DNA of 64,000 bases from Eremomyces bilateralis CBS 781.70 (Eukaryota): NCBI GenBank assembly GCA_010015585.1, contig ML975152.1; one strand, 5' to 3'. A program made the position numbers and the translations under genes. Numbering within the stretch: the first letter of the stretch is position 1; each line of letters opens with the position of its first letter. Below the pieces are notes generated by a model. It worked only from the letters and a program-made list of their open reading frames with translations, ran no database searches and had not been told where the DNA came from. This document shows positions 2,223 to 62,464 of the stretch, piece by piece.

Positions 2223-3641
2223 GGTGGATGTAATGCACGTTGTATCGTATAACTCAGAAAATGTCTAGGTGTTGAATGCTGCGTGTGGACATTACAAAGG
2301 TGGTAATATCACCGTCATCGGGAGTTGTTAATTGAGTGTTTATTTGCGTTGTTCGTTGCCGGGTGCAGTTGATGTTAAGTGTTTGTACGATCGATACCCA
2401 TGCACATGGAACCCCAGGGTAATTAGAGGGTTGCCACTTGCACGCGTAAGTGGGCATTCCAGACTCCAGTTCACAGCGCAACTATTCCATGGTGGTTCAC
2501 TGCATCAACACTCCGGTATACTCTGTACAGAGTTGAATAATACTTAGATACATACATTTATCCTTAAGCCGCATCCACAAGTGCTTTTCTCAGTCACTAT
2601 AAGACCCGTTCCGACTCTATTTATCCATTGAAACCACACGTTTCAATGACCCCTTGAGTCTCCACCACAACTTTTCTTGCAGTTGTGTTGTAGAGATATA
2701 TCAACAATTGCCTTATCGATAACTTGTATGACTGCCGGTGACACGCCCACGGTTATTTCCCATCCGTACGACCCCCATGTTCCAGAACGTCGCATTTTCC
2801 CCACGTTTGACCTGCCACCATCGTACACACCCGAGCCGGACCTCCCGTGAAAACAACGCAAAGGTGTATAGCATAGTCTGCCATCAACCGAAGTGAAAGG
2901 ACTGGGAATTGGGAGAAGGATGAGTCGCTTGCTACGATGTAAAATCGGCCAGACGCGATAGAAACGGACAACTGAGATGGTCCAGGAAAAGAGGAGAACC
3001 CGTTGACCGCAGCGGGTATGAGCCGTGATATTCCTTCCACCCCTCATCATCGTTCATCGTTCATCATAACAAGGAGGAGATATGGGGTCGTAGAAGTCGA
3101 TCAACGCAAACTAGGAGACAAGGGCACAGATCGTAAGCTAAATCACGGGAATGCATAAATATGACACGATGCAATCATCCACTGACCGGCATCTTCGGGC
3201 GAGAAATGGAACCAGCAACGATAGGGGAGAACGTTCAGTCAATACTCCTTATGGAAGCGAACAAAGTACGAAGGATATTCCAAGCGTGGTAACCCGATCC
3301 CCGTGAACGATGCGACGCGCAGGGGGTTGGAAGAGAAGGCAGCGAGAGAAATCAAAGGAAAGGGGAGATGGAAATCGGGGAACCTCGATCTCGATCGCTC
3401 AGCCGCAGCACCAAAGCACGCCGAGAATCGAAATCGAGATCCCCTCCTCCGGCCGGTCAACCCGATCCAGCACGAAAATCAGACCGGTAACCCAAAACGA
3501 ACCGAGACGAGGAAAAATATGTGGGAGATGTGTAAAAGTTAAGGAAAACCCTTTTTGTGACCCCGCCCGAGTTTTTCATGCTACAAACTTTCCCCGTACC
3601 GAAATGATGGCGACGTTTTCGAAACTCCTAATTAGAACCAG

Positions 3642-5946
3642 TTATCCTTGATACCCCCCGAACCCGTTGCCCGGGAACGCGCCAGGATTCGGCCCCGGCG
3701 GCTGCGCCCATTGTGCTTGTCCCTGGTTCCCACGCCCGTAGCCGCCGGCGCTCGCTGGCATCTGAGGGTACGGTTGGCCCATGGCTGGTGGAGAGAATCC
3801 AGCTTGGCCTTGCTGGAAAGGTTGGCCAGCCGGATTAGGACCTAGAGATTCTCAGTTAGCGACAAAGTTCCAAATATATGCGCAGCGAGAAATCAAATGC
3901 ATCAAGTGACAAGAAGAAGCTGGTGGAAACCTCAAGAGGTGGTGTTGCAGATTAGTACATGCCCGAGACTAAAGGGATGCCGAATGCGGAGGGGTCCAGG
4001 TGCGGCATTTAGTGACTCTGTGATGTCCAGGATTGGCATAGGGAGCAGATGGGGATGATGAATAGCGCCTCTGGTTGCCGTTGCCGTGTGGCCTGTTGTA
4101 GGGTTTCCTCTGATATGGGTGGAATTCACCTTGGCCAGTCCACTTGCGCTTCCTCGGCTGATACTCATTTTGGGATGGGGGGGAGGGTGTGTCATCCGAA
4201 GCGCCAGGGTGTGCCTTGGGTTTCCTGGGAAGTGTATGATGCGTTCGGTTACCTTGGTGCCCGGCCTGGACTGGGTAGTCGGGTTCATAGAACTCATCCT
4301 GGCAACCATCGCTAGTTTTCGAACAGAGGGTTACTGCATCCCCATTGTACCCTGGATCAGTTGAGCAATCCTGCATCTCTGTGTCCTCAGATGCATGCGA
4401 ATACTGCTGACCGTGCTGATTTCGAGAGGAACGTCCCTCTGACGATCCTGCGGAATCCATACGGGGCCCTCCGTTTCGACCAGGGGATGATTGCCGACCG
4501 TCTGGATGATAGTGGGACGCAGGTGGAGAAGCAGCGCAATGAGACTTGGAAGGAGGTGGCGGGTAATGAGAGTTGTATGTACCTTGAGGAGACATCGGGC
4601 CGGGTGGACCGCCGTACTGGGGGAAGTACGCACTGGGGGTCTGCGGGAATGCCGAGTTGGGGCCTTGCGCAGGCGAATAGGTTTCAAACTGTCCGGTAGG
4701 AGGACGATCTTTGCCCCACTGAAAGTTGTCAGGTGTGAAAGGATCCATTAGCCGGGAGTGTCAACTTACGCTGCACTTGAGGGGCCTGCCGTTCACTTGA
4801 TACCCGTTGAGCTGGCAGATAGCCATTGCTGCATTCTCATGGGTATCCATCTTGATGAAAGCGAAGCCACGATCGGACTGGAAGCGAGTCTCGACTACGT
4901 ATCCAAAATTCTGAAACAAGGGAACGAGATCCTGCTGAGAAGTGTACGGAGTCAGATTGCCGACGTAGCACGTGGTCTGCCATTGAGGAGTCTGCTGAAC
5001 GATCATTTCGTAGCTTTGCATGCCGTTCGTTGGGAAATGATGATGTCCATAAGGAGTGGTTGGCGTCATCCCCATCGAAGCCATCGCCTGCTGTTGGGAC
5101 ATGGACGGCTGGCCTTTTTGATTCGCCCAGTTGCAGCGAATCGCGCGGGAACCAAGCCACTCCCCGTCCATCGAGTTGAGAGCCTTGTCCGCATCGGAAC
5201 GATCGCGGAAAGCGACGAAACCATAGCCACGAGAGCGGCCGGTTTTCATGTCCCACATGACACGGGCTTCGGAAACGTTCCCAAACGCCGAGAAGGCTTG
5301 GGTTAGAATCTCATCATTGACCTCATTGGACAAATCGCCGACGAAAATGTGGAAGTGGCTCGACGTATCTTCCTTGTTGGAGCTGTTCGATTGATAGGCC
5401 CAGTTGACGCGAATTTCCTAAACGTTGTGAGCAACCGCTGATATTCAAGATAAAAAGCCCACATACCGATTGATGGATGCGACGACCGTTGAGAGTTTGC
5501 ATGGAACGTTCTGCCGCGCCCGGGTCGTCGAATTCGATAAACCCATAGTTGAACCCCTTGGATTGATAGTTCTTGTCCGGGATGATCTTGACGCTTTGAA
5601 CGTGACCAGCCGTCTCGAAGATCTGACGAAGGACTTCCTCGGTCACACGCGGGTCGAGACCACCGACGTATAGCGCACGCTTGTTGGGCTCCGGAGCCGC
5701 GCGGCGGACGTAGCCACCGGCGCTGGCAGGGGACATGACGTTCCCGGACATCGGGGAGCTGATCGCGGTAGGGATCGGATTGGTGTTCTGCGGGATGATG
5801 ACCGGGGCAAGAGCCGGCGGGGGCATATGCGAATTCCCACCTTGTCCATTGCCCGGCACCGTACCCGGAGGGGCATTGTTGTCGTAGCCCGGCGCTCCGG
5901 TCGAGGGAGGGGGTGGGAGGCTAGCAGAGGGATTCGACTCAGACAT
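3642..5946 (-). CDS. pub1: Pub1/TIA-1-family poly(A)+ RNA-binding protein with 3 RRMs and a G/Q/P-rich tail; 4 exons
   Basis: RRM motifs ALYVGGL, NYGFIEF, SRGYGFVAF, TCYVGNL and RGFAFIKM. Introns lie at about 5466-5419, 4769-4719 and 4582-3842. The last exon (3841-3642) reads GPNPAGQPFQQGQ...FGGYQG*. Confidence 0.93.
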
Positions 5947-8030
5947 TGCTGAAGATAATGCTCGACGAGCTATTTCGGTTGACTTTGATGCCCTAAGAGA
6001 TGCTTTCGCAGCGAAAGGAAATTACGGGCCTGACGACAGCTCGATGGCACGGCAAGAAAAGTCGCGTTTCGATATGAAAGCGGACTGCAGTAGACAGACC
6101 GGCCGGTGATGTTCAAATAAAGCGCTCAAAGCTGGACAACAGCAAGGAAAGGCCGAAGGGATGTCGAGAGCGATGAAGAACTGCAAGGCGGTTGAATCTA
6201 TGGCAGGCGGAGGAAAGAATGAGCGCTCCGAGATCATCATGATGGAACCGAAAGGAAGTCTACTGTACTCACCGACAAGTAACCAAAGCTCCCGTCCGAT
6301 GGAAAGGGAATCGGTCTTAGACTGAGGCCAACCGTATCGCTTGGCGAAGGAAAATCGAAGGAGACGGAACTGAAACCCTGAGGAAGTGGAAACAGCACGA
6401 AGGAGATGGAGAGAGGAAAGGAGATATGATAGAAGTATTGGTCGCTCTGCAGGCTTAAAAACCGCCGACCGATAGGAGAAGGAGGAGGGAGAAGACGTCA
6501 AGAAATGAAGACAGAGTGGAAGGAATACTTGAAAGTTGAAAGGGGGTGGGAATGGAGATGGAAAGAGAAAGGAAAAAGAAAGGTGAACAGAGCAGCGGAT
6601 GGAGAGGGTGAAGTGGAGAGAGTGAGGAGGAGGAGTAGTAGTGAGGAGAACGGAGGATGAGGAGAATGAGGAGAATAAGGTGAGTGAAGTGTGATGGAGA
6701 GAGAGAGCGGCGCAAATTATGGCGTTGCACCGTGCATGGGTAGAGGTCACTGGCGGTGTTCAGGGTGCTGGTTACTGGTGGTGCTGCCCCGACGGTCTGG
6801 GTCAGTCGCTGCGTCTCCGGGGCTCTGGAGAGGTTTCTGGCCCTTCTGCCGCGCTGCAAGTGATTAGTTTTCTACGGAATACTACTGTTGGTTACAGAAC
6901 TGGCAGAACCGTAGAACCGGAGTGCAGGACCGTCCGGCTGGCGGGCCGTAGCCAACCTGCAGTAGATAGGACTAAACTAGCGATAATAGAGCCTAGAGCC
7001 CTGGTAGGGGAGGCTGGGGAGGGTATTGGCACTATTGGGTAACCGGTGAGAGATACAGGAGGGGGGATGGTTCACTGTTAGCAGCTGTTCCGGCGCCAAA
7101 CCCCTCGCCTGTCACTGCGACAAATTCAACGTCGGCTAAGGGTTGATTGGATGGTATGCCAGTCGAGCGAGGAGGCGTTGGGCGGATATCAGATTTCAGA
7201 GCCGCCCATGCACATTGCAGAACAAGGTCATGAAGGAATATTAAGGAATAGCTAAAGATTCATCAAGAAATGGAACCCTTTCATCGAATTATTAGCGACG
7301 CTGCGGAATACCGCAACAATAATGAAAGGCCCAGTATCAAGTCGAGTACAATACTTAAATAGTAGGACCCATATAAATTCACCGCAACCTTAAGCCTCTC
7401 ATGATACAATGCGGTACTCACGGTAATACAGATTACTATATATAACCATAGCAAGAATTAGGAAAGAGCCCTCCTTGGTTAGATCATGACAGTGGATGCT
7501 GACAATACGAACTCCTGCCCGGTACGGAGTACAGGATATATACTGGCAGTCCAGTCAGGTAGTACGGACCTCCTGTGGAGTCGTGATACTTTGCTAGGTA
7601 CGGAATACTATTATTCTTTATGTAAGGTACCAGTTTGCTATCAGATTACTATCAATTTGCTCTCCATAGAAAACTGCTCTTCTATGATTAATCTATACAT
7701 GCGGATACACGTCCATCGTGATCTATCAACATTCAATTTACATTCTTCCTGTAGTGAGTGAGTTACACTGAAACGTATTCCGTAGGTACCCACCCCTTCC
7801 CGTCCTCCCCACCAACCAGCCCCGAACCCAGATGAACCAATGAACGGGCACCAATCACCCAACGCGATCATGACCACACCCGCTCCCATCACTTCACTGC
7901 TCCCATTACCATCGCCGCGCAAATATGATCCGCCATCTAACCCCCCCACTTAGTCCCTCCATCTTCCCTCCATCCAAGACATCCATCGCCTCTCCCTTCT
8001 CAATCGCTGCTCCGACTCCAGCTCTCCATC

Positions 8031-39092: not shown

Positions 39093-40019
39093 CTTCGGAG
39101 TATGACAGTCGCCGTACACGAGAGTCGAGAGTTATCTAAAGAATGGCAGGATTTACAACGGTTACCAGGTGGATATGACCATCTCGACAGAAGATGAATA
39201 CGAATAGTTTGAGGATTCAGAGGGAAGTGACTAGTAGTGGCCTTGAAGTAGGTAATATATATTACATGTGATGGTCAGGAGTGGATGGCGGGACTTGTGA
39301 ATTGATAGCCCGGAAACGGAGTTCATCAGGCATCAGATCTCCCGTAAAATGACGCGTTGGCTACAAGGGGCATCGCCGGTGGGATTTGTGGACTGCGGCT
39401 GCTGCCGAGTGGTGAATCGAATTATGGAAATCAATTTGTTGTCCCGATCCCCGAGCGGCTGTTACTACGTACTACAACACCACCTCTCTTCTGGTTCTGT
39501 TAATACTACTACTATTCCGTACATACTGTCAGGTTCTTTATCAAGGTCCGGATCAGGGTATTGACTCTTTATGATCAGACAATAAGGTTGCTAGGAACAT
39601 CCCGAAATGAAAGTGTGCACGGCCACGTCTGATATCCATTTTCGGAACCCTTCTTCAGTTCTTCTCTCTTGAATCTCGATATATTATCGATCCTAGTCTG
39701 GATTGAATATCGCTGGTCCTAATCTTTCATCTTCCCCAGATCCCGAGTCAGGCACAGTGGGCCAGAATGTCATAATGTCATGAAACGATTGCAGATATTA
39801 CCCCGTCAAAGAAACCTATCTCATTCCAACGCCAGCCTTCTTTGTTCATTGTTTGCTACCTCTGCACTCGACGACCTTCTTAGTGATCTCGCACCACACC
39901 ATACAGTTCGAGGGCTAAGCGTCTGAAACGCAATATTCTTTCGAGATTCACTTCTCGAAAGTTCGCCCTAGAATCCGCGATGAGAGGCTTAAGCGCCGAT
40001 TCATCGATCAAAATTCACA

Positions 40020-42047
40020 ATGTTTGCTCCAAAAGGGCTCTTCAGAAATATCCCTTGCCCGCGGCTCGAGGAATGCCAGCTATTGAATTGCCTATTCTCT
40101 CATGATAACCAAACGGTCGATTCCAACGAGCAATCCATTTCCTTCGCGACCAGGTCGAAGGCAAAAGTCGATCAGGATGGATCCTCAGTTACAGCTGAAC
40201 CGGATAGGAAGAGGAGGAGGCTTTCATCGGACGAAGGGGTCTCCGTCCCTGTTGATGATCTATCGACGATGGAGAGGCTAGTCCTACAGGCTCGAACCGG
40301 CGAAAACATAACGACACCAGCGCCCGAGGCGCCCGAGAAGTCAGAGAAGTCAGAGAATAGCGATTCAACCTCCTCCCTACTCGGCTCGAAGACCTCTATA
40401 GCGGATGCTAAACCAAAGGATAAAAGAGCGGCGATCCCCAGGCGAATATCCCGAGGAATCTCTCCTCCGCCATTGAAACGCCCATCCGGTTCCACAGCCA
40501 CATCAGTTCCGCCCAAACCGGCAGCTAAACCAACCTCTAAGCCCGTCGTTTGGGAGCCGCTGAATCCTCGTCTGGTGCAGAAAGATCCTGTTGGTCACGG
40601 GAGGCGTTTTCTGCTCCTCAAAAGCCTCTATCAAGCAATGAAACGTTTGAATGACGAAGCTGCAAACGTCCCCGAAACAAAGCTGAAAAAGTTACTCCTC
40701 CATGAAGGGCAGTTGACCAAAATGGCTCTTGACGAGGAGGAGAAACTCGTTCATGAAGGTGGCTCTGTATACGAAAATCTGGTCAGGCAGCGGCTCTTCG
40801 CATACAAGAAGATGAAAGTTACGGAGTGGTTGGAAATTCTTGAGGCGCAAAGAAGGCCGAGAGAATCGGAAACGAAAACCGAGAAACCAATCGAGACAGG
40901 TCTTGAGCCACACCAGGAAGTCTCCATGGTATCCCGCTTCAAAGCTGATCAAGAGAGTCTCGAAAAACACGGGTATGTCGCCCGACCTCCGACGGCCGCA
41001 GAGGTCCAAGCCGCACGAGAAGGAGAAATGGACGCGAAAGGCTGGGAAGAGTGCGATCGATGCAAAACTCGCTTCCAAGTCTTCCCCGACCGGCGCGATG
41101 ACGGCGCCCTCACCAGCGGTGGAACATGCGTGTACCATTGGGGCAAGCGACGATTTCCCAAACGAGAAAAGACCGACGCGACTACCGGCACGAAGCCGAC
41201 ATTGTTCGAGTGCTGCAATGAGCCGATCGGTTCGGATGGTTGCACGACGCACCCGACACATGTCTTCAAGGTCTCTGAGGTGAAGCGATTGGCGGTCGTT
41301 CACCCGTTCGAACCCACTCCCGATAACCCCGAGATCCCGTCGTCGACAGCGCTGGCGTTCGATTGTGAGATGGGATATACCACTAAAGGGATGGAACTGA
41401 TCCGCCTCTCTGCCGCCTCCTGGCCCGAAGGCAAATCCGTCCTTGACGTCCTCGTCAAGCCGTTCGGCGCCATCCTCGACTTTAACACGCGCTTCTCCGG
41501 CGTGACCCTGGAGCAATTCAACTCGGCCAAGCCGCTCATCCTCAACAACTCCCAAGTTCCCCCCGGAACCGACATCGCCGGCACCAATAGCTACCTCCAC
41601 ATCGTCTCCAGCCCATCCACAGCCCGTTCCCTATTCCTCACCCTCATCTCCCCTACCACCCCCCTCATTGGCCACGCGCTCGAAAACGACCTCAATGCCC
41701 TCCGCCTCGTCCACCCCACGATCATCGACACCGTCCTCCTCTTCCCGCACCCGCACGGCCTTCCCATCCGCCACGGCCTCAAGAACCTCGCGCGGGAGTG
41801 GCTGCGCCGGAACATCCAGGCGGGCGGGGCGGATGGACACGATAGTCTGGAAGATGCGCGGGCGGCGGGCGACTTGGTGCGACTGAAGATTGCGAGGGAA
41901 TGGAGGAAGTTGAAGGCGGAGGGGTGGAGGGCGGAGGAGGGGAAATTCGTGGGGCCGGATGCCAAGAAAGGGGTGCCGTCGGGGGAGTTGCCGCCTTATG
42001 AGGAACCTTCGGGTGCGTCGAATAGGAAAAGGAAGAGCAGTTATTAG
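40020..42047 (+). CDS. rex3: RNA exonuclease 3 (DEDDh family)
   Basis: Exonuclease motifs AFDCEMGYT, DFNTRFSGV, LIGHALENDL and GHDSLEDARAA, preceded by a Cys/His region CDRC..CVYHWG..CCNEPIGSDGC. Confidence 0.9.
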   Translation: MFAPKGLFRNIPCPRLEECQLLNCLFSHDNQTVDSNEQSISFATRSKAKVDQDGSSVTAEPDRKRRRLSSDEGVSVPVDDLSTMERLVLQARTGENITTPAPEAPEKSEKSENSDSTSSLLGSKTSIADAKPKDKRAAIPRRISRGISPPPLKRPSGSTATSVPPKPAAKPTSKPVVWEPLNPRLVQKDPVGHGRRFLLLKSLYQAMKRLNDEAANVPETKLKKLLLHEGQLTKMALDEEEKLVHEGGSVYENLVRQRLFAYKKMKVTEWLEILEAQRRPRESETKTEKPIETGLEPHQEVSMVSRFKADQESLEKHGYVARPPTAAEVQAAREGEMDAKGWEECDRCKTRFQVFPDRRDDGALTSGGTCVYHWGKRRFPKREKTDATTGTKPTLFECCNEPIGSDGCTTHPTHVFKVSEVKRLAVVHPFEPTPDNPEIPSSTALAFDCEMGYTTKGMELIRLSAASWPEGKSVLDVLVKPFGAILDFNTRFSGVTLEQFNSAKPLILNNSQVPPGTDIAGTNSYLHIVSSPSTARSLFLTLISPTTPLIGHALENDLNALRLVHPTIIDTVLLFPHPHGLPIRHGLKNLAREWLRRNIQAGGADGHDSLEDARAAGDLVRLKIAREWRKLKAEGWRAEEGKFVGPDAKKGVPSGELPPYEEPSGASNRKRKSSY

Positions 42048-57651: not shown

Positions 57652-59398
57652 GCTGATGAAGTTGAGATCTGAAGATGATGCGTTGGATGGCGATGTAGTT
57701 GTTGCTGTTGTGCTGGTGGTTTGATGTCTTCATCGCCGTCCAACACGGTACTTTATATAGAGTCTAGCAGCGCCATTCATCTCCATTGTTGAAACCGAGA
57801 ACTCCGCAATCCGTAACTTCGCCAATCGCACAGGAAGCTATTCAGTCCCTCGCTATCCACTAATTACCAATATCCCCGACGGTGACCAAATGAAGAACAA
57901 GCCCCTGGCATATCCACTTTGGATATCGTATTCTCCCACCCCAAGACGAAGGGAACCAGACCGTGAATCACGCCGTGCGGACTTGGCGCAGGATAGCATT
58001 AGTAATTCGAGGCACCGGGATAGTATCAGAGGCACTGCTTAGCAATCGGAAATTCAGAACAGCCATCGCCTTCCATTCGCTAGATCAAAGCTTGTTAGCG
58101 GACTTGGCAGCCAGCATTGAAGCCGTTATATCAAGACAAGCAAGACTGCGTCGATAGTTGTGCGTGTACGGGGCTCCGATCCAATCTATCAACATTCAGT
58201 GAAGCCACTAACTCAGTGTACTAGCATTTGTCAGCAAAGTTCAGTGTAGCCTGTAGGGTGCAGTGTAGGGTAGGTATCAACGCGGGGCTGTGGTTGGATT
58301 GATATATGCAGTGGATTTGTGTGAACGACTTCCTGATTAGGCAAACGTGAAGCTATTCCCACATATTCGGACATCGTACCGTCACTTTACCCCAACCGTT
58401 CAAGTTCTGCATATACTTCTATTACCAAAGAGATCAACTCTATTGCGCCTTTTCTGTTTATTGGAAAACTCAATTAAGGCGACGGCAGACTTCTACTACT
58501 CTTACCTAGTAGCGTGTTAGTGAAGCTTCCCAATGTGTCTCCCCTCTCACTGAATCACTGTAATATAGCAGGGTGTGAACAATCAAGACTCTCAAACCGT
58601 GTCAGCGACCGACGGTGTCAATAAGACTCTTGAAGTTCCATTCACTGATGGCCTGGCGGGGCTTACAGAGCACATACCTCTGCCGAACGTCGATGATACC
58701 ATTCGCAAAAGGATAGCTGGGAGACTGAGAGGGGGTCGGCGGGAGTAGTTATGTTTTCGAGTTAAACATGAAGTTGGAAAATAGGACATCGCGCTATCCC
58801 CAATATAGGAGGTACACTGATACGCCAAGTGATTAGATCGATTCCGGATTCTAGTGCATTTATTTATGCCTTAATGCCTAAGTGCCTTGCAGATATTCCG
58901 TTCCAGCTCCTCACTCCCCTGCATCTCTCCAGCCTCTGCTCTCCTTCTCCTCCTCCTCTCCCCATCACCTATCATCCCATCTCCTCTAATTAATACCCTG
59001 CCTCAAATACAGGGAGGCTTCACCACTTCCTGAGGCCACTTCTTTCTCGACGTTCCCTCATCATGCTTTCATCCGTTTAGCCCGTTCAATTCTTCGTATC
59101 TACTTTCAAGCGAGCGTACTATGTGAATAGGGGATCGACATTGAATTCCATCGCCATCCGGCGCGTCTCCAGCTTTTGACTTTTTCTCGCTGATTCCGAC
59201 ATCTATACCACCCCATTCAATTCCATCGGCTCATTAGCACGATCTCCTCATCTCGATTATAATAACTTTCACCCCGTCACGACCCGAATCGCTGCACTGT
59301 CCCTCGCAAACGCATGCCTTTCGCTTCTCCGCGACCCTGACTCCAAATTCGACCCGACCCGAGCTCCACCCTGGAACGTTGATCCGCACCGCTCAACC

Positions 59399-60121
59399 AT
59401 GGCACCACCGGCCTTCGAACCGTTAACCCTCACGCCCGTCTCCTTCAGCCTGACCGCTGGAACCGACATTCCCGCACCGCTCGAGACCCCACCCGAATCC
59501 CCACGGCCCCCGACCCCCGGCCGCGGCCCCCTCTCCTCCCATCCCACCACCCCCATCCTCAAACAATTCTCCAACTCCGACCTCAACAGCAAGCTGACCA
59601 GCGACGGTGAGGCCAACGGCCGCGCCCCCGCCATGAGCCCGCTCAGCCTCAACAGCCCGGCCGAACCCTTCACGAAACAACCGCAATCCTCCCTGACCAC
59701 CAACATCAGCAGTAACCACACCGGGAAACGGCCCTCCTCCGTCCGCAAATTCCTCTCCCTCCGCTCCCTGCACCCCCGCGCCTCGCACCCCGATTCCGCC
59801 TCCGCCCACCGCCCCTCCACCCCCCAATCCGCCGCCTCACACACGCCGAGCTCGCCCGGTCTGTCGCGGAAGCGGAGCAGCGCCTGGTTCGGCGGGCCGG
59901 GGAAGAGAAAGAGCGGCATGTTCCTGACCGGGCGGCCGTCCGAGTCGCGGGAAGGCGCGGACGCAGAGGGGCTGAACGGCCACGCAGCGAGCGGGACCGA
60001 CGCGGTCGAGGAGGAGCAAAAAGGACCGCCGCCACCGACGATTCCGGAGTGGGAGTCGTTATCGGAGGGGTTAGACGGGGGGGATCTCGGGGCGGAGGAT
60101 ATGTTTAAAGATATCAAGTAG
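59399..60121 (+). CDS. Hypothetical S/P-rich protein (240 aa)
   Basis: ATG in good context (ACCATGG), strong codon bias and motif-like ends (SFSLTAGTDIPAP; DLGAEDMFKDIK). Confidence 0.75.
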   Translation: MAPPAFEPLTLTPVSFSLTAGTDIPAPLETPPESPRPPTPGRGPLSSHPTTPILKQFSNSDLNSKLTSDGEANGRAPAMSPLSLNSPAEPFTKQPQSSLTTNISSNHTGKRPSSVRKFLSLRSLHPRASHPDSASAHRPSTPQSAASHTPSSPGLSRKRSSAWFGGPGKRKSGMFLTGRPSESREGADAEGLNGHAASGTDAVEEEQKGPPPPTIPEWESLSEGLDGGDLGAEDMFKDIK

Positions 60122-61243
60122 GGAAGGGAGCGCGGTGTGCGAGGCATCCCCCCCTCACGGACCAGCAGGAGTGGTGCCGTGGATGGCCTTTTCGACAGGC
60201 AACTCCGGGCCTTGTGGCCGTTTCGTTCCTCTCGAAATCACCGAGCGTTCGCCCCGTCTAGGAAGGGCTGTGCGATCATTATTCTTCTTCTTGTTTGCAA
60301 TGTCTTTTCTCCCTTCCTCAAGATCCGGTCGATGTCGTGGCTTCAGGCGGGACTGGAGTAGCGAAGGGCGCCCGGGCGTTCCAGAAAACATTCCATTGAA
60401 GCCGACCTTTGTATTTCTACCCCTTTCTCATCCGATGAAAAGGGAATCTCTTTTGTTTGAAGGGCTCCGCGGGTGGAGATGGTGCCCGGGAAAGTACCGT
60501 TCCAATTTCTTTCCCTCGAGTAGGATACCACCGTTGTTGTGTTGGAGTCCCGCCATTCCGACTCCCCCCCATTGCCCCTGTCCATCTTGACCTCCGTGTT
60601 TGATGGATGCTGCCATTTTCCTTCGCACCGAATCTTTCACCGTCGGATGCTTCTTCAGACGAGCGCTCATGCGGGTTTCTGTTTTTTTTAGACTGAGAGC
60701 TGCACTGCAACTTGCCAGCCCTCTCGCGCTATGGAGGCATATATTACTGTATCTTATGTAGAAGTCGACAGATATGTCTCGATCGCAATGTCACAGCGCG
60801 TCAACTGCGTGCTTCCAATGAAAGTGTGCGGGATGGTGTGATATGAGTACATGGGTTGATGGGTTCGGAGAGCTTCCAACTGTACGATATATTCCTGTCA
60901 CTACAATGAGCGGGAATCATGGATCGACGCGACAGAAGAGTGTTAACTAGTTACCGGTATTATAGGGATGCTGTTCACTGTGCAGTGATGAGATTATATT
61001 TGGAGCTCCCAGACATGATGGCGGATATGGTTCTTGTGGTCTGCCGGACCCTTCGTCCCGACGTCACAATGGAAACTTTCGGCAACCTGCAAAGCTTCCA
61101 ACAACACCTCGGATTGTTTGGCATCAATCATCCACGTTAACCTCAATTGATCCATCAGATGGACGCCGTTGAATTCTATTATTGAGCGAATTCCGAAAAT
61201 TCCCTAATCTATTAGATTCCGCCCTTGCAGGCACTTGCCAGCG

Positions 61244-62464
61244 ATGTCCCCATCATCTGCCACCCGCCTCTCCCGTCCCACCCGCAATGCCTTAACCACT
61301 CTCTCCCGCCCTACCTCCCGCTCCCCCTTCTCTCCCTCCCTCCATCACCACCGTCCCATCTCCTCCTTTGGCTACACCCAATCCCGCGCCCTCATCTTCC
61401 CCGACTACGGCGACCCCGCCTCCATCCTCTCCCTCCACACCCACTCCCTCCCCCCCACCCACGGTGACCACCTCACCCTCCGCTTCCTCGCCTCCCCCAT
61501 CAACCCCGCCGACATCAACCAGCTCCAAGGCGTCTACCCCTCCAAACCCACCTTTACCCCTGACCTCGGCACCCCGCATCCCGTCGCTGTCGGCGGCAAT
61601 GAGGGCGTCGCTGAGGTCCTCGCGGTCGGGAGCGGTGTGAAGGACCTCGCGAAGGGTGACTGGGTCATCATGCGCAGCCCCGGCTTCGGCACGTGGCGCA
61701 CGCACGCGCAGACTACGGCGGCGGGGCTGCTGCGGCTGGGGGAAGCGACGCGCGAGGGGATCACCCCGGCGCAGGCGGGCACGGTGAGCGTGAACCCGTG
61801 CACGGCGTACCGGATGCTGAAAGACTTCGTGGAGTTGAAGGAAGGGGACTGGTGGATTCAGAACGGGGCGAATAGCGGGGTGGGGAGGGCGGCGGTACAG
61901 TTGGGGCGGGAGTGGGGATATCGGAGCATCAATGTGGTAAGGGGGCGGGAGACAGAGGCGGAGACGGAGGCGTTGAAGGCGGAGTTGCGGGAGCTGGGGG
62001 CGGATGTCGTGGTAACGGATAAGGAGGCGATGGAGCGGGGTTTCGGCGACCGTGTGAAGGAGTGGACGGACGGGGGCAGGGGGAAGGTGAGGCTGGGGCT
62101 GAACTGCGTGGGCGGGAAGCTGGTCACGTCCATGGCGAAGGTGCTCGCGCCGGACTCGCGGGTTGTGACGTACGGCGCCATGGCGAAGCAGCCCGTCGCG
62201 CCGCCGGCCGGGTTGCAGATTTTCCGGAATATTGGGTTCGATGGGTTTTGGGTCAGTCGGTGGAGCGATAAGAATCCGGTGGACAAGGAGAAGACGGTGA
62301 AGCACGTGCTGGATTTAACCCGGCAAGGGAAATTTAAGGACTCGCCCATGGAGGAGATTCGGTGGGATTGGGACACGAAACAGGATACCTTGGTGCGTGC
62401 GGTGGCGGGGACGCTCGAGGGCTATCGACAAGGAAAGGGTATATTCGTATTTGGTGATACCTAA
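61244..62464 (+). CDS. etr1: Mitochondrial 2-enoyl thioester (enoyl-ACP) reductase, MDR family
   Basis: R/S-rich presequence and motifs ASPINPADINQLQGVYP, GGNEG, GFGTWRTH, SVNPCTAYRML, IQNGANSGVG and VTYGAMAKQP. Confidence 0.93.
   Translation: MSPSSATRLSRPTRNALTTLSRPTSRSPFSPSLHHHRPISSFGYTQSRALIFPDYGDPASILSLHTHSLPPTHGDHLTLRFLASPINPADINQLQGVYPSKPTFTPDLGTPHPVAVGGNEGVAEVLAVGSGVKDLAKGDWVIMRSPGFGTWRTHAQTTAAGLLRLGEATREGITPAQAGTVSVNPCTAYRMLKDFVELKEGDWWIQNGANSGVGRAAVQLGREWGYRSINVVRGRETEAETEALKAELRELGADVVVTDKEAMERGFGDRVKEWTDGGRGKVRLGLNCVGGKLVTSMAKVLAPDSRVVTYGAMAKQPVAPPAGLQIFRNIGFDGFWVSRWSDKNPVDKEKTVKHVLDLTRQGKFKDSPMEEIRWDWDTKQDTLVRAVAGTLEGYRQGKGIFVFGDT

Follow-up and report, generated by a model that had tools for sequence, protein, structure and literature searches.

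A long, coding-like last intron in pub1 of Eremomyces bilateralis and a possible alternative C-terminus

Does the last intron of the pub1 gene in the fungus Eremomyces bilateralis CBS 781.70, which measures 741 nt and continues the reading frame of the preceding exon for 204 codons, give this RNA-binding protein an alternative C-terminus, or is the open frame an accident of composition, a nested gene or a captured relic of coding DNA? We examined this question in a 64,000-nt stretch of contig ML975152.1 (hereafter the window), together with related proteins and loci and with one public run (X1) of uncertain library type, which was used as assembled contigs and compared with the window over positions 3200-6400.

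Gene structure, splicing and the public protein model

Four coding exons on the minus strand make up a three-RRM pub1 gene. The first (5946-5467, with the ATG at 5946-5944) encodes an N-terminal low-complexity part and RRM1, matches Pfam RRM_1 and is identical to the public protein P0013, in which three RRM_1 stretches were recognized (Pfam, E 3e-57). The second (5417-4770) encodes RRM2 and RRM3, both with Pfam hits. The third (4718-4583) encodes WGKDRPP...MSPQ, supplies the first base of a Gly codon and is conserved in relatives, and the fourth (3841-3642) encodes a conserved G/Q/P-rich tail that ends in ...GFGGYQG, followed by the stop codon TAA (3644-3642). When exon 2 was compared with the other 119 proteins among the matches listed, identity was 87-92% over 100% of its length, and many of these proteins are named pub1, TIA-1 or oligouridylate-binding protein (1). 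On sequence similarity, the gene is a member of the Pub1/TIA-1 family, and it resembles the Pub1/TIA-1/TIAR/oligouridylate-binding proteins in its three RRMs, its exon 2 identity and its spliced ...GFGGYQG-type tail. It differs from the listed orthologues at one point: none of them has the 204 in-frame codons, and their last intron measures ~50-60 nt rather than 741 nt.

The coding exons are separated by introns of 49 nt (5418-5466; GTATGT..TAG), 51 nt (4719-4769; GTAAGT..CAG) and 741 nt (3842-4582), and a further intron of 75 nt (6198-6272; GTGAGT..TAG) lies in the 5′UTR. The last intron is in phase 1 and follows ...MSPQ-G, with its GT at 4582-4581 (donor GTACAT), a branch-like GCTAAC at 3860-3855 and an acceptor TAG ending at 3842. 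The main RNA contig of run X1 (2070 nt, depth 3001.7) omits exactly these 741 nt, along with the 51-, 49- and 75-nt introns (the last skipped from 6197 to 6273), and each of the four skips is bounded by CT..AC on the plus strand, corresponding to GT..AG on the gene strand. The four spliced junctions show that the run contains RNA and that the dominant mRNA is the spliced form; the last intron is real and is mostly spliced out. Among the four RNA-confirmed donors, GTACAT is the only one that lacks a G at +5.

Splicing yields a product of 487 aa, of which 66 aa form the tail after the last junction, and translation through the unspliced intron gives 625 aa, with 204 codons beyond exon 3 and a TAG at 3971-3969. 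The first-pass annotation, made from the sequence alone, had described the last intron as oversized and bounded by GTACAT, GCTAAC and TAG, had attributed a G/Q/P-rich tail of 66 aa to splicing and had noted that the unspliced frame stays open for about 204 codons to a stop at 3969. These coordinates all agree on the minus strand, and our translations give both tails as described.

The main contig begins at 3531, so that the 3′UTR was assigned to 3531-3641. Another RNA contig (949 nt, depth 1193.1) shares 30 nt (3531-3560) with this end of the pub1 contig before continuing below 3200; it represents either a longer 3′UTR form of pub1 or an overlapping neighbour transcript. A short contig diverges at 3527 and has a loose end that resembles adapter sequence.

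The public database carries the unspliced reading. P0013 (625 aa, annotated as a hypothetical protein of Eremomyces bilateralis CBS 781.70) is 100% identical to the read-through translation, and no 487-aa form of this species was found among the 120 proteins in the listed exon 2 matches. Since P0013 corresponds to the read-through translation, the annotated protein represents the minor unspliced reading, without the conserved ...GFGGYQG end. The 625-aa public model therefore appears to be a minor read-through form, and the pub1 gene model (3969-5946, minus strand) should probably be corrected or given a second isoform. Without the conserved C-terminus, P0013 can mislead orthology and domain comparisons.

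Age of the intron position and search for a source of its sequence

We compared the locus with 80 metagenome loci obtained from a scan with exon 2, many of which are near-duplicates of one another. In the 73 of these 80 loci where both exon 3 and exon 4 were matched by tblastn, the gap between the two exons ranged from -39 to 141 nt, and the intron stretch was absent from every one of them; the remaining 7 loci lacked one or both exon matches, several being cut by a contig end. Inspection of 18 loci by eye revealed, in 14, a GT..AG intron of ~50-60 nt that interrupts the same codon (G|GT...AG|G) in the same phase. Two of these, L009 and L010, the closest loci to the window among those with full exon 3 matches, have the donor GTACGC. 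The short intron shared by relatives indicates that the intron position is old, and that its 741-nt size and coding-like body are special to this lineage.

Both ends have been retained, which favours an alternative C-terminus. Exon-4-like sequence is present in relatives at up to 65.7% identity (tblastn), and the spliced tail aligns with the ends of the Dothideomycete orthologues P0021, P0031 and P0019, so that exon 4 is conserved as exon 3 is. Gene calls that read through the same point in other fungi (P0002-P0008) meet stops or pass into other frames shortly after ...PQG. By sequence comparison, the spot in the tail is one that tolerates extra disordered sequence.

In four further loci (L001, L020, L028 and L071), 60-75 nt of in-frame coding sequence rich in P, H, S and G takes the place of the intron, although L020 is ambiguous and could still contain one (GGTGGA...CAG). 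This sequence could reflect intron loss with insertion, or exonization of the intron.

The 204-codon stretch itself was searched for widely. A phmmer search of 1.84 billion representatives returned 11 hits, of which nine covered the exon 3 part only and two were unrelated repeat proteins. In a word-based search of a collection of 5.8 billion clusters, P0013 alone matched the tail among longer proteins, and no match to the tail was found among proteins of near length. Pfam assigned no family to the read-through tail, the ESM Atlas gave a best score of 0.77, below lead level, and scans of metagenome, viral and prokaryote contigs with the tail gave pattern matches and no relative. Comparison of the intron and the tail with the 64-kb window and the 80 loci by blastn and tblastn recovered the self match and short chance hits, and no second copy of the intron stretch was found in the window. 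By these searches, the stretch is an apparent orphan that is specific to this species.

These results bear on the main rival to an alternative C-terminus, a reading that we consider possible, although we would not expect it: that the old short intron acquired a functionless piece of coding DNA whose source is unsampled, lacks annotation or has been lost. The captured DNA would be in frame by luck (1/3 in the sense orientation), too recent to have gathered stops and spliced out, and the intron RNA described below would be pre-mRNA or excised intron. The absence of the stretch from 73/73 checkable related loci fits such a capture. On the other side, none of the searches of the 1.84 billion representatives, of the word-based, metagenome, viral and prokaryote collections or of the window identified a source, and at the stretch we found no terminal inverted or flanking direct repeats that would mark an insertion, the repeats present being short and chance-sized. 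Introner-like elements and transposons insert in introns, and a lineage-specific gain of several hundred bases resembles their action; the pub1 stretch differs from them in that it lacks terminal and flanking repeats, occurs once in the 64-kb window and occupies an old intron position.

Coding character of the intron body

The open part of the intron spans 4582-3969 and continues the frame set by exon 3 for 204 codons. Its composition (C 33%, T 19%) is like that of the exons. Past the stop codon, the sequence changes: in the last 127 nt of the intron (3968-3842), which contain the GCTAAC, T rises from 19% to 35%, stop trinucleotides increase from 1.8 to 5.5 per 100 nt, and stops occur in all frames.

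The simplest objection is that the frame is open by chance in a C-rich, T-poor intron, in which case the 625-aa model would be a gene-calling error. The T-poor minus strand in this region speaks for it, as does the fact that the conserved protein is clearly that of the spliced form. In addition, the numbers of in-frame stops in the 612-nt part are 0, 1 and 10 in frames 0, 1 and 2, so that frame 1 is nearly open as well. When the intron was shuffled with its dinucleotide composition preserved, however, at least 204 open codons arose in 0.22% of 20,000 trials (P = 0.0022), and shuffles confined to each codon position, which gave an expectation of 9.0 ± 2.5 in-frame stops, contained none in 12 of 400,000 trials (P 3e-5).

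Composition by codon position is likewise periodic (chi2 52.9, p 1.2e-9). T accounts for 22.5%, 4.9% and 28.9% of codon positions 1, 2 and 3, with 10 T in 204 codons at position 2, and its depletion at position 2 holds in all four quarters of the intron ORF. For comparison, we used 612-nt windows from the same 64 kb, in which non-ORF windows were those with no open run of 110 codons. None of the 182 non-ORF windows reached a chi2 of 52.9 (their maximum was 32.3), and for the 161 fully open windows the median was 34.1 (75th percentile 66.7). The nearly open frame 1 follows from the depletion of T at codon position 2 of frame 0, which is itself a coding-type signal. No tandem repeats were found behind the periodicity; a decayed trinucleotide repeat was considered as its source and rejected, given the lack of a repeat signal, the diverse amino acids and the constant phase over 612 nt. 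The 204-codon open frame is not due to chance, and we regard an accidental frame as a very remote explanation of this intron.

A nested gene or transcript, on either strand, with its own start and unrelated to the pub1 frame, is another way in which an intron may come to look like coding DNA. Internal ATGs are present at tail codons 42 and 70 and could serve such a gene, and the separate RNA contig described below, which covers 3885-4587 only, has a depth of its own and is not joined to the exons. The coding periodicity, by contrast, begins at the first codon after the donor, and none of the 41 codons before the first internal ATG has T at position 2 (Fisher p 2e-6). As the coding look reaches the donor, it fits read-through from exon 3 and not a nested gene. 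All three antisense frames contain 5 to 18 stops each over the whole 741-nt intron, and Rfam, searched over 3000-7000, yielded no RNA family at E up to 1. A nested gene is accordingly improbable in our view, if somewhat less so than an accidental frame.

Codon usage tells a different story from periodicity. The log-odds per codon of the intron ORF were -0.012 in frame 0 and +0.018 in frame 1, compared with 0.10-0.24 for the true exons of the gene and a 99th percentile of 0.016 for non-ORF windows, and its third-position G+C was 0.505 versus 0.66 in the training ORFs. The training set was crude, consisting of stop-to-stop ORFs of at least 300 codons, some of which overlap on opposite strands. 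Stop-free frames of more than 300 codons face each other at 61208-62461 (plus) and 61295-62314 (minus), at 59180-60118 (plus) and 59272-60237 (minus), and at 39993-42044 (plus) and 40695-41630 (minus). Such pairs probably represent the usual antisense openness of G+C-rich coding DNA, and they contaminate a codon table whenever it is derived from long ORFs. The differences from the gene's own exons in codon usage and third-position composition favour the captured relic. In general character, the intron stretch resembles DNA that encodes a disordered region, either young or of foreign flavour.

We infer that translation in the exon 3 frame extends through the stretch, or did so until very recently. 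In a neutral relic that has lost its order, stops would be expected (P 3e-5 for zero), so that a captured sequence must be very recent to stay open; as a rough estimate, it would keep 204 codons open only while a few percent diverged from its source. A relic so young should have a recognizable source, and none was found for this intact orphan frame, which points to maintenance.

Intron RNA and the proposed read-through

RNA from the intron body is present in run X1 as a separate contig (3885-4587; 707 nt, depth 143.1). If contig depth is taken as the rough gauge of level that it is, this amounts to ~5% of the main contig (143.1 vs 3001.7), the spliced form being ~20x deeper. The contig extends 5 letters into exon 3 and ends 43 nt short of the acceptor with 4 unaligned letters. 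No contig of the run joins the intron to exon 3 or to exon 4 by 31 letters on both sides. Neither the lack of an intron contig over 3842-3884 nor the lack of unspliced contigs for the short introns was counted as a finding.

Intron-body RNA thus exists, and it is compatible with an mRNA that retains the intron or is polyadenylated within it, with pre-mRNA and with excised intron. An excised lariat was considered as a possible origin of the contig, whose end letters, as far as contigs can show, do not fit a branch at GCTAAC. The first-pass annotation had suggested that intron retention or intronic polyadenylation may swap the tail of the protein: the intron RNA at ~5% depth agrees with this suggestion, while the contig bridging to either exon that would go with it did not appear. 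The same observations suit the captured relic, since a signal of ~5% is attainable by ordinary pre-mRNA or by a slowly degraded excised intron, the spliced form is far deeper and no contig bridges the intron RNA to the exons.

The explanation that we prefer, to which we give about even credence, is that the intron is a lineage-specific coding module that provides a minor alternative C-terminus when it is not removed. The ancient phase-1 last intron of Pub1/TIA-1 genes would have taken up ~680 nt of exon-like sequence in this lineage. In most transcripts, the intron would be removed to give the conserved 487-aa protein with its uncharged tail rich in G, Q, P and Y; a minority of the RNA would retain it, perhaps helped by the weak donor GTACAT. 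On such RNA, translation would continue from exon 3 through 204 lineage-specific codons as far as the stop at 3971-3969, and the resulting 625-aa protein would have its prion-like tail swapped for a polar, charged, disordered tail rich in His and Pro. The intron RNA would then be a mature retained-intron or intronically polyadenylated mRNA that is translated, and the frame would be kept by selection. A more specific version, that an orphan module of 204 codons arose or lodged in an ancient 50-60-nt intron and is kept open by selection as a splicing-selected tail, seems to us doubtful when taken in full, a little more so than the captured relic. Readings other than those named here retain a small share of our expectation.

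Retaining the last intron, or polyadenylating within it as a composite terminal exon, is a general mechanism for producing alternative C-termini. The pub1 locus resembles this arrangement in its weak donor, in the in-frame continuation with its own stop, in the intron RNA that accompanies a dominant spliced form and in the absence of an exon junction downstream of the read-through stop. It departs from it in the nature of the retained part, an orphan that shows coding-type periodicity and is not ordinary intron sequence. An exitron is a coding, exon-like intron inside a protein-coding exon, and the pub1 intron is comparable in its exon-like composition, its weak splice site, its length divisible by three (741) and its location inside the coding exon of the public model. 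It differs in having an in-frame stop at codon 205, with the last 127 nt beyond the coding region, in that the main, conserved product is the spliced form and in its ancient position. Classification as an exitron was rejected, as the stop at 3971-3969 means that the intron is not wholly coding and stop-free. The available portions of the literature on exitrons and intron retention in fungi, made up of reviews and plant papers, contained no comparable fungal case, and the portions on Eremomyces bilateralis contained nothing about the pub1 gene. Both the mechanism, in which retention of a last intron gives another C-terminus, and the family are known; an orphan coding-like module in an ancient short intron is unusual.

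The two tails and what they may mean

The two predicted tails differ sharply in character. The spliced tail (...PNPAGQPF...GFGGYQG) is G/Q/P-rich and of uncharged type, with 1 K+R and 0 D+E. The read-through tail is polar, charged and of disordered type, with 23 K+R, 18 D+E and 15 H; its commonest residues include P (27), S (26), G (19), H (15) and R (15), and only 12 of its 204 residues are hydrophobic, this scarcity following from the depletion of T at codon position 2. The low-complexity C-terminus rich in G, Q, P and Y is present in the spliced form only and is replaced in the read-through form. Tails of Pub1 and TIA-1 drive condensate formation.

The first-pass annotation had gone further and proposed that the alternative tail might be targeted to the nucleus. 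The strings that it quoted, QPRKRKW, FHPY, RKPY and TYNSHYPPPPSK, were all found in the read-through tail, which also contains RKRK and HPYQRKPY. The proposed nuclear targeting was not supported, because such motifs are not significant against shuffled tails, of which 61% contained a PY-type match, 10% a basic cluster and 6% both. Control of the splicing by Pub1 itself, an idea extended from TIA-1, is purely conjectural.

The case concerns one little-studied fungus, and the product already stands in public annotation without comment. If the more specific version, with selection for the open frame, is true, the splicing efficiency of one weak donor would set whether Pub1 carries an uncharged, prion-like tail or a charged, disordered one, and an alternative terminal exon would have been caught as it emerges within an intron. 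A natural tail swap of this kind would be a ready-made experiment on the role of the tail. An orphan coding-like stretch in an intron of ancient position also offers a clean case for the study of how terminal exons and disordered regions are born.
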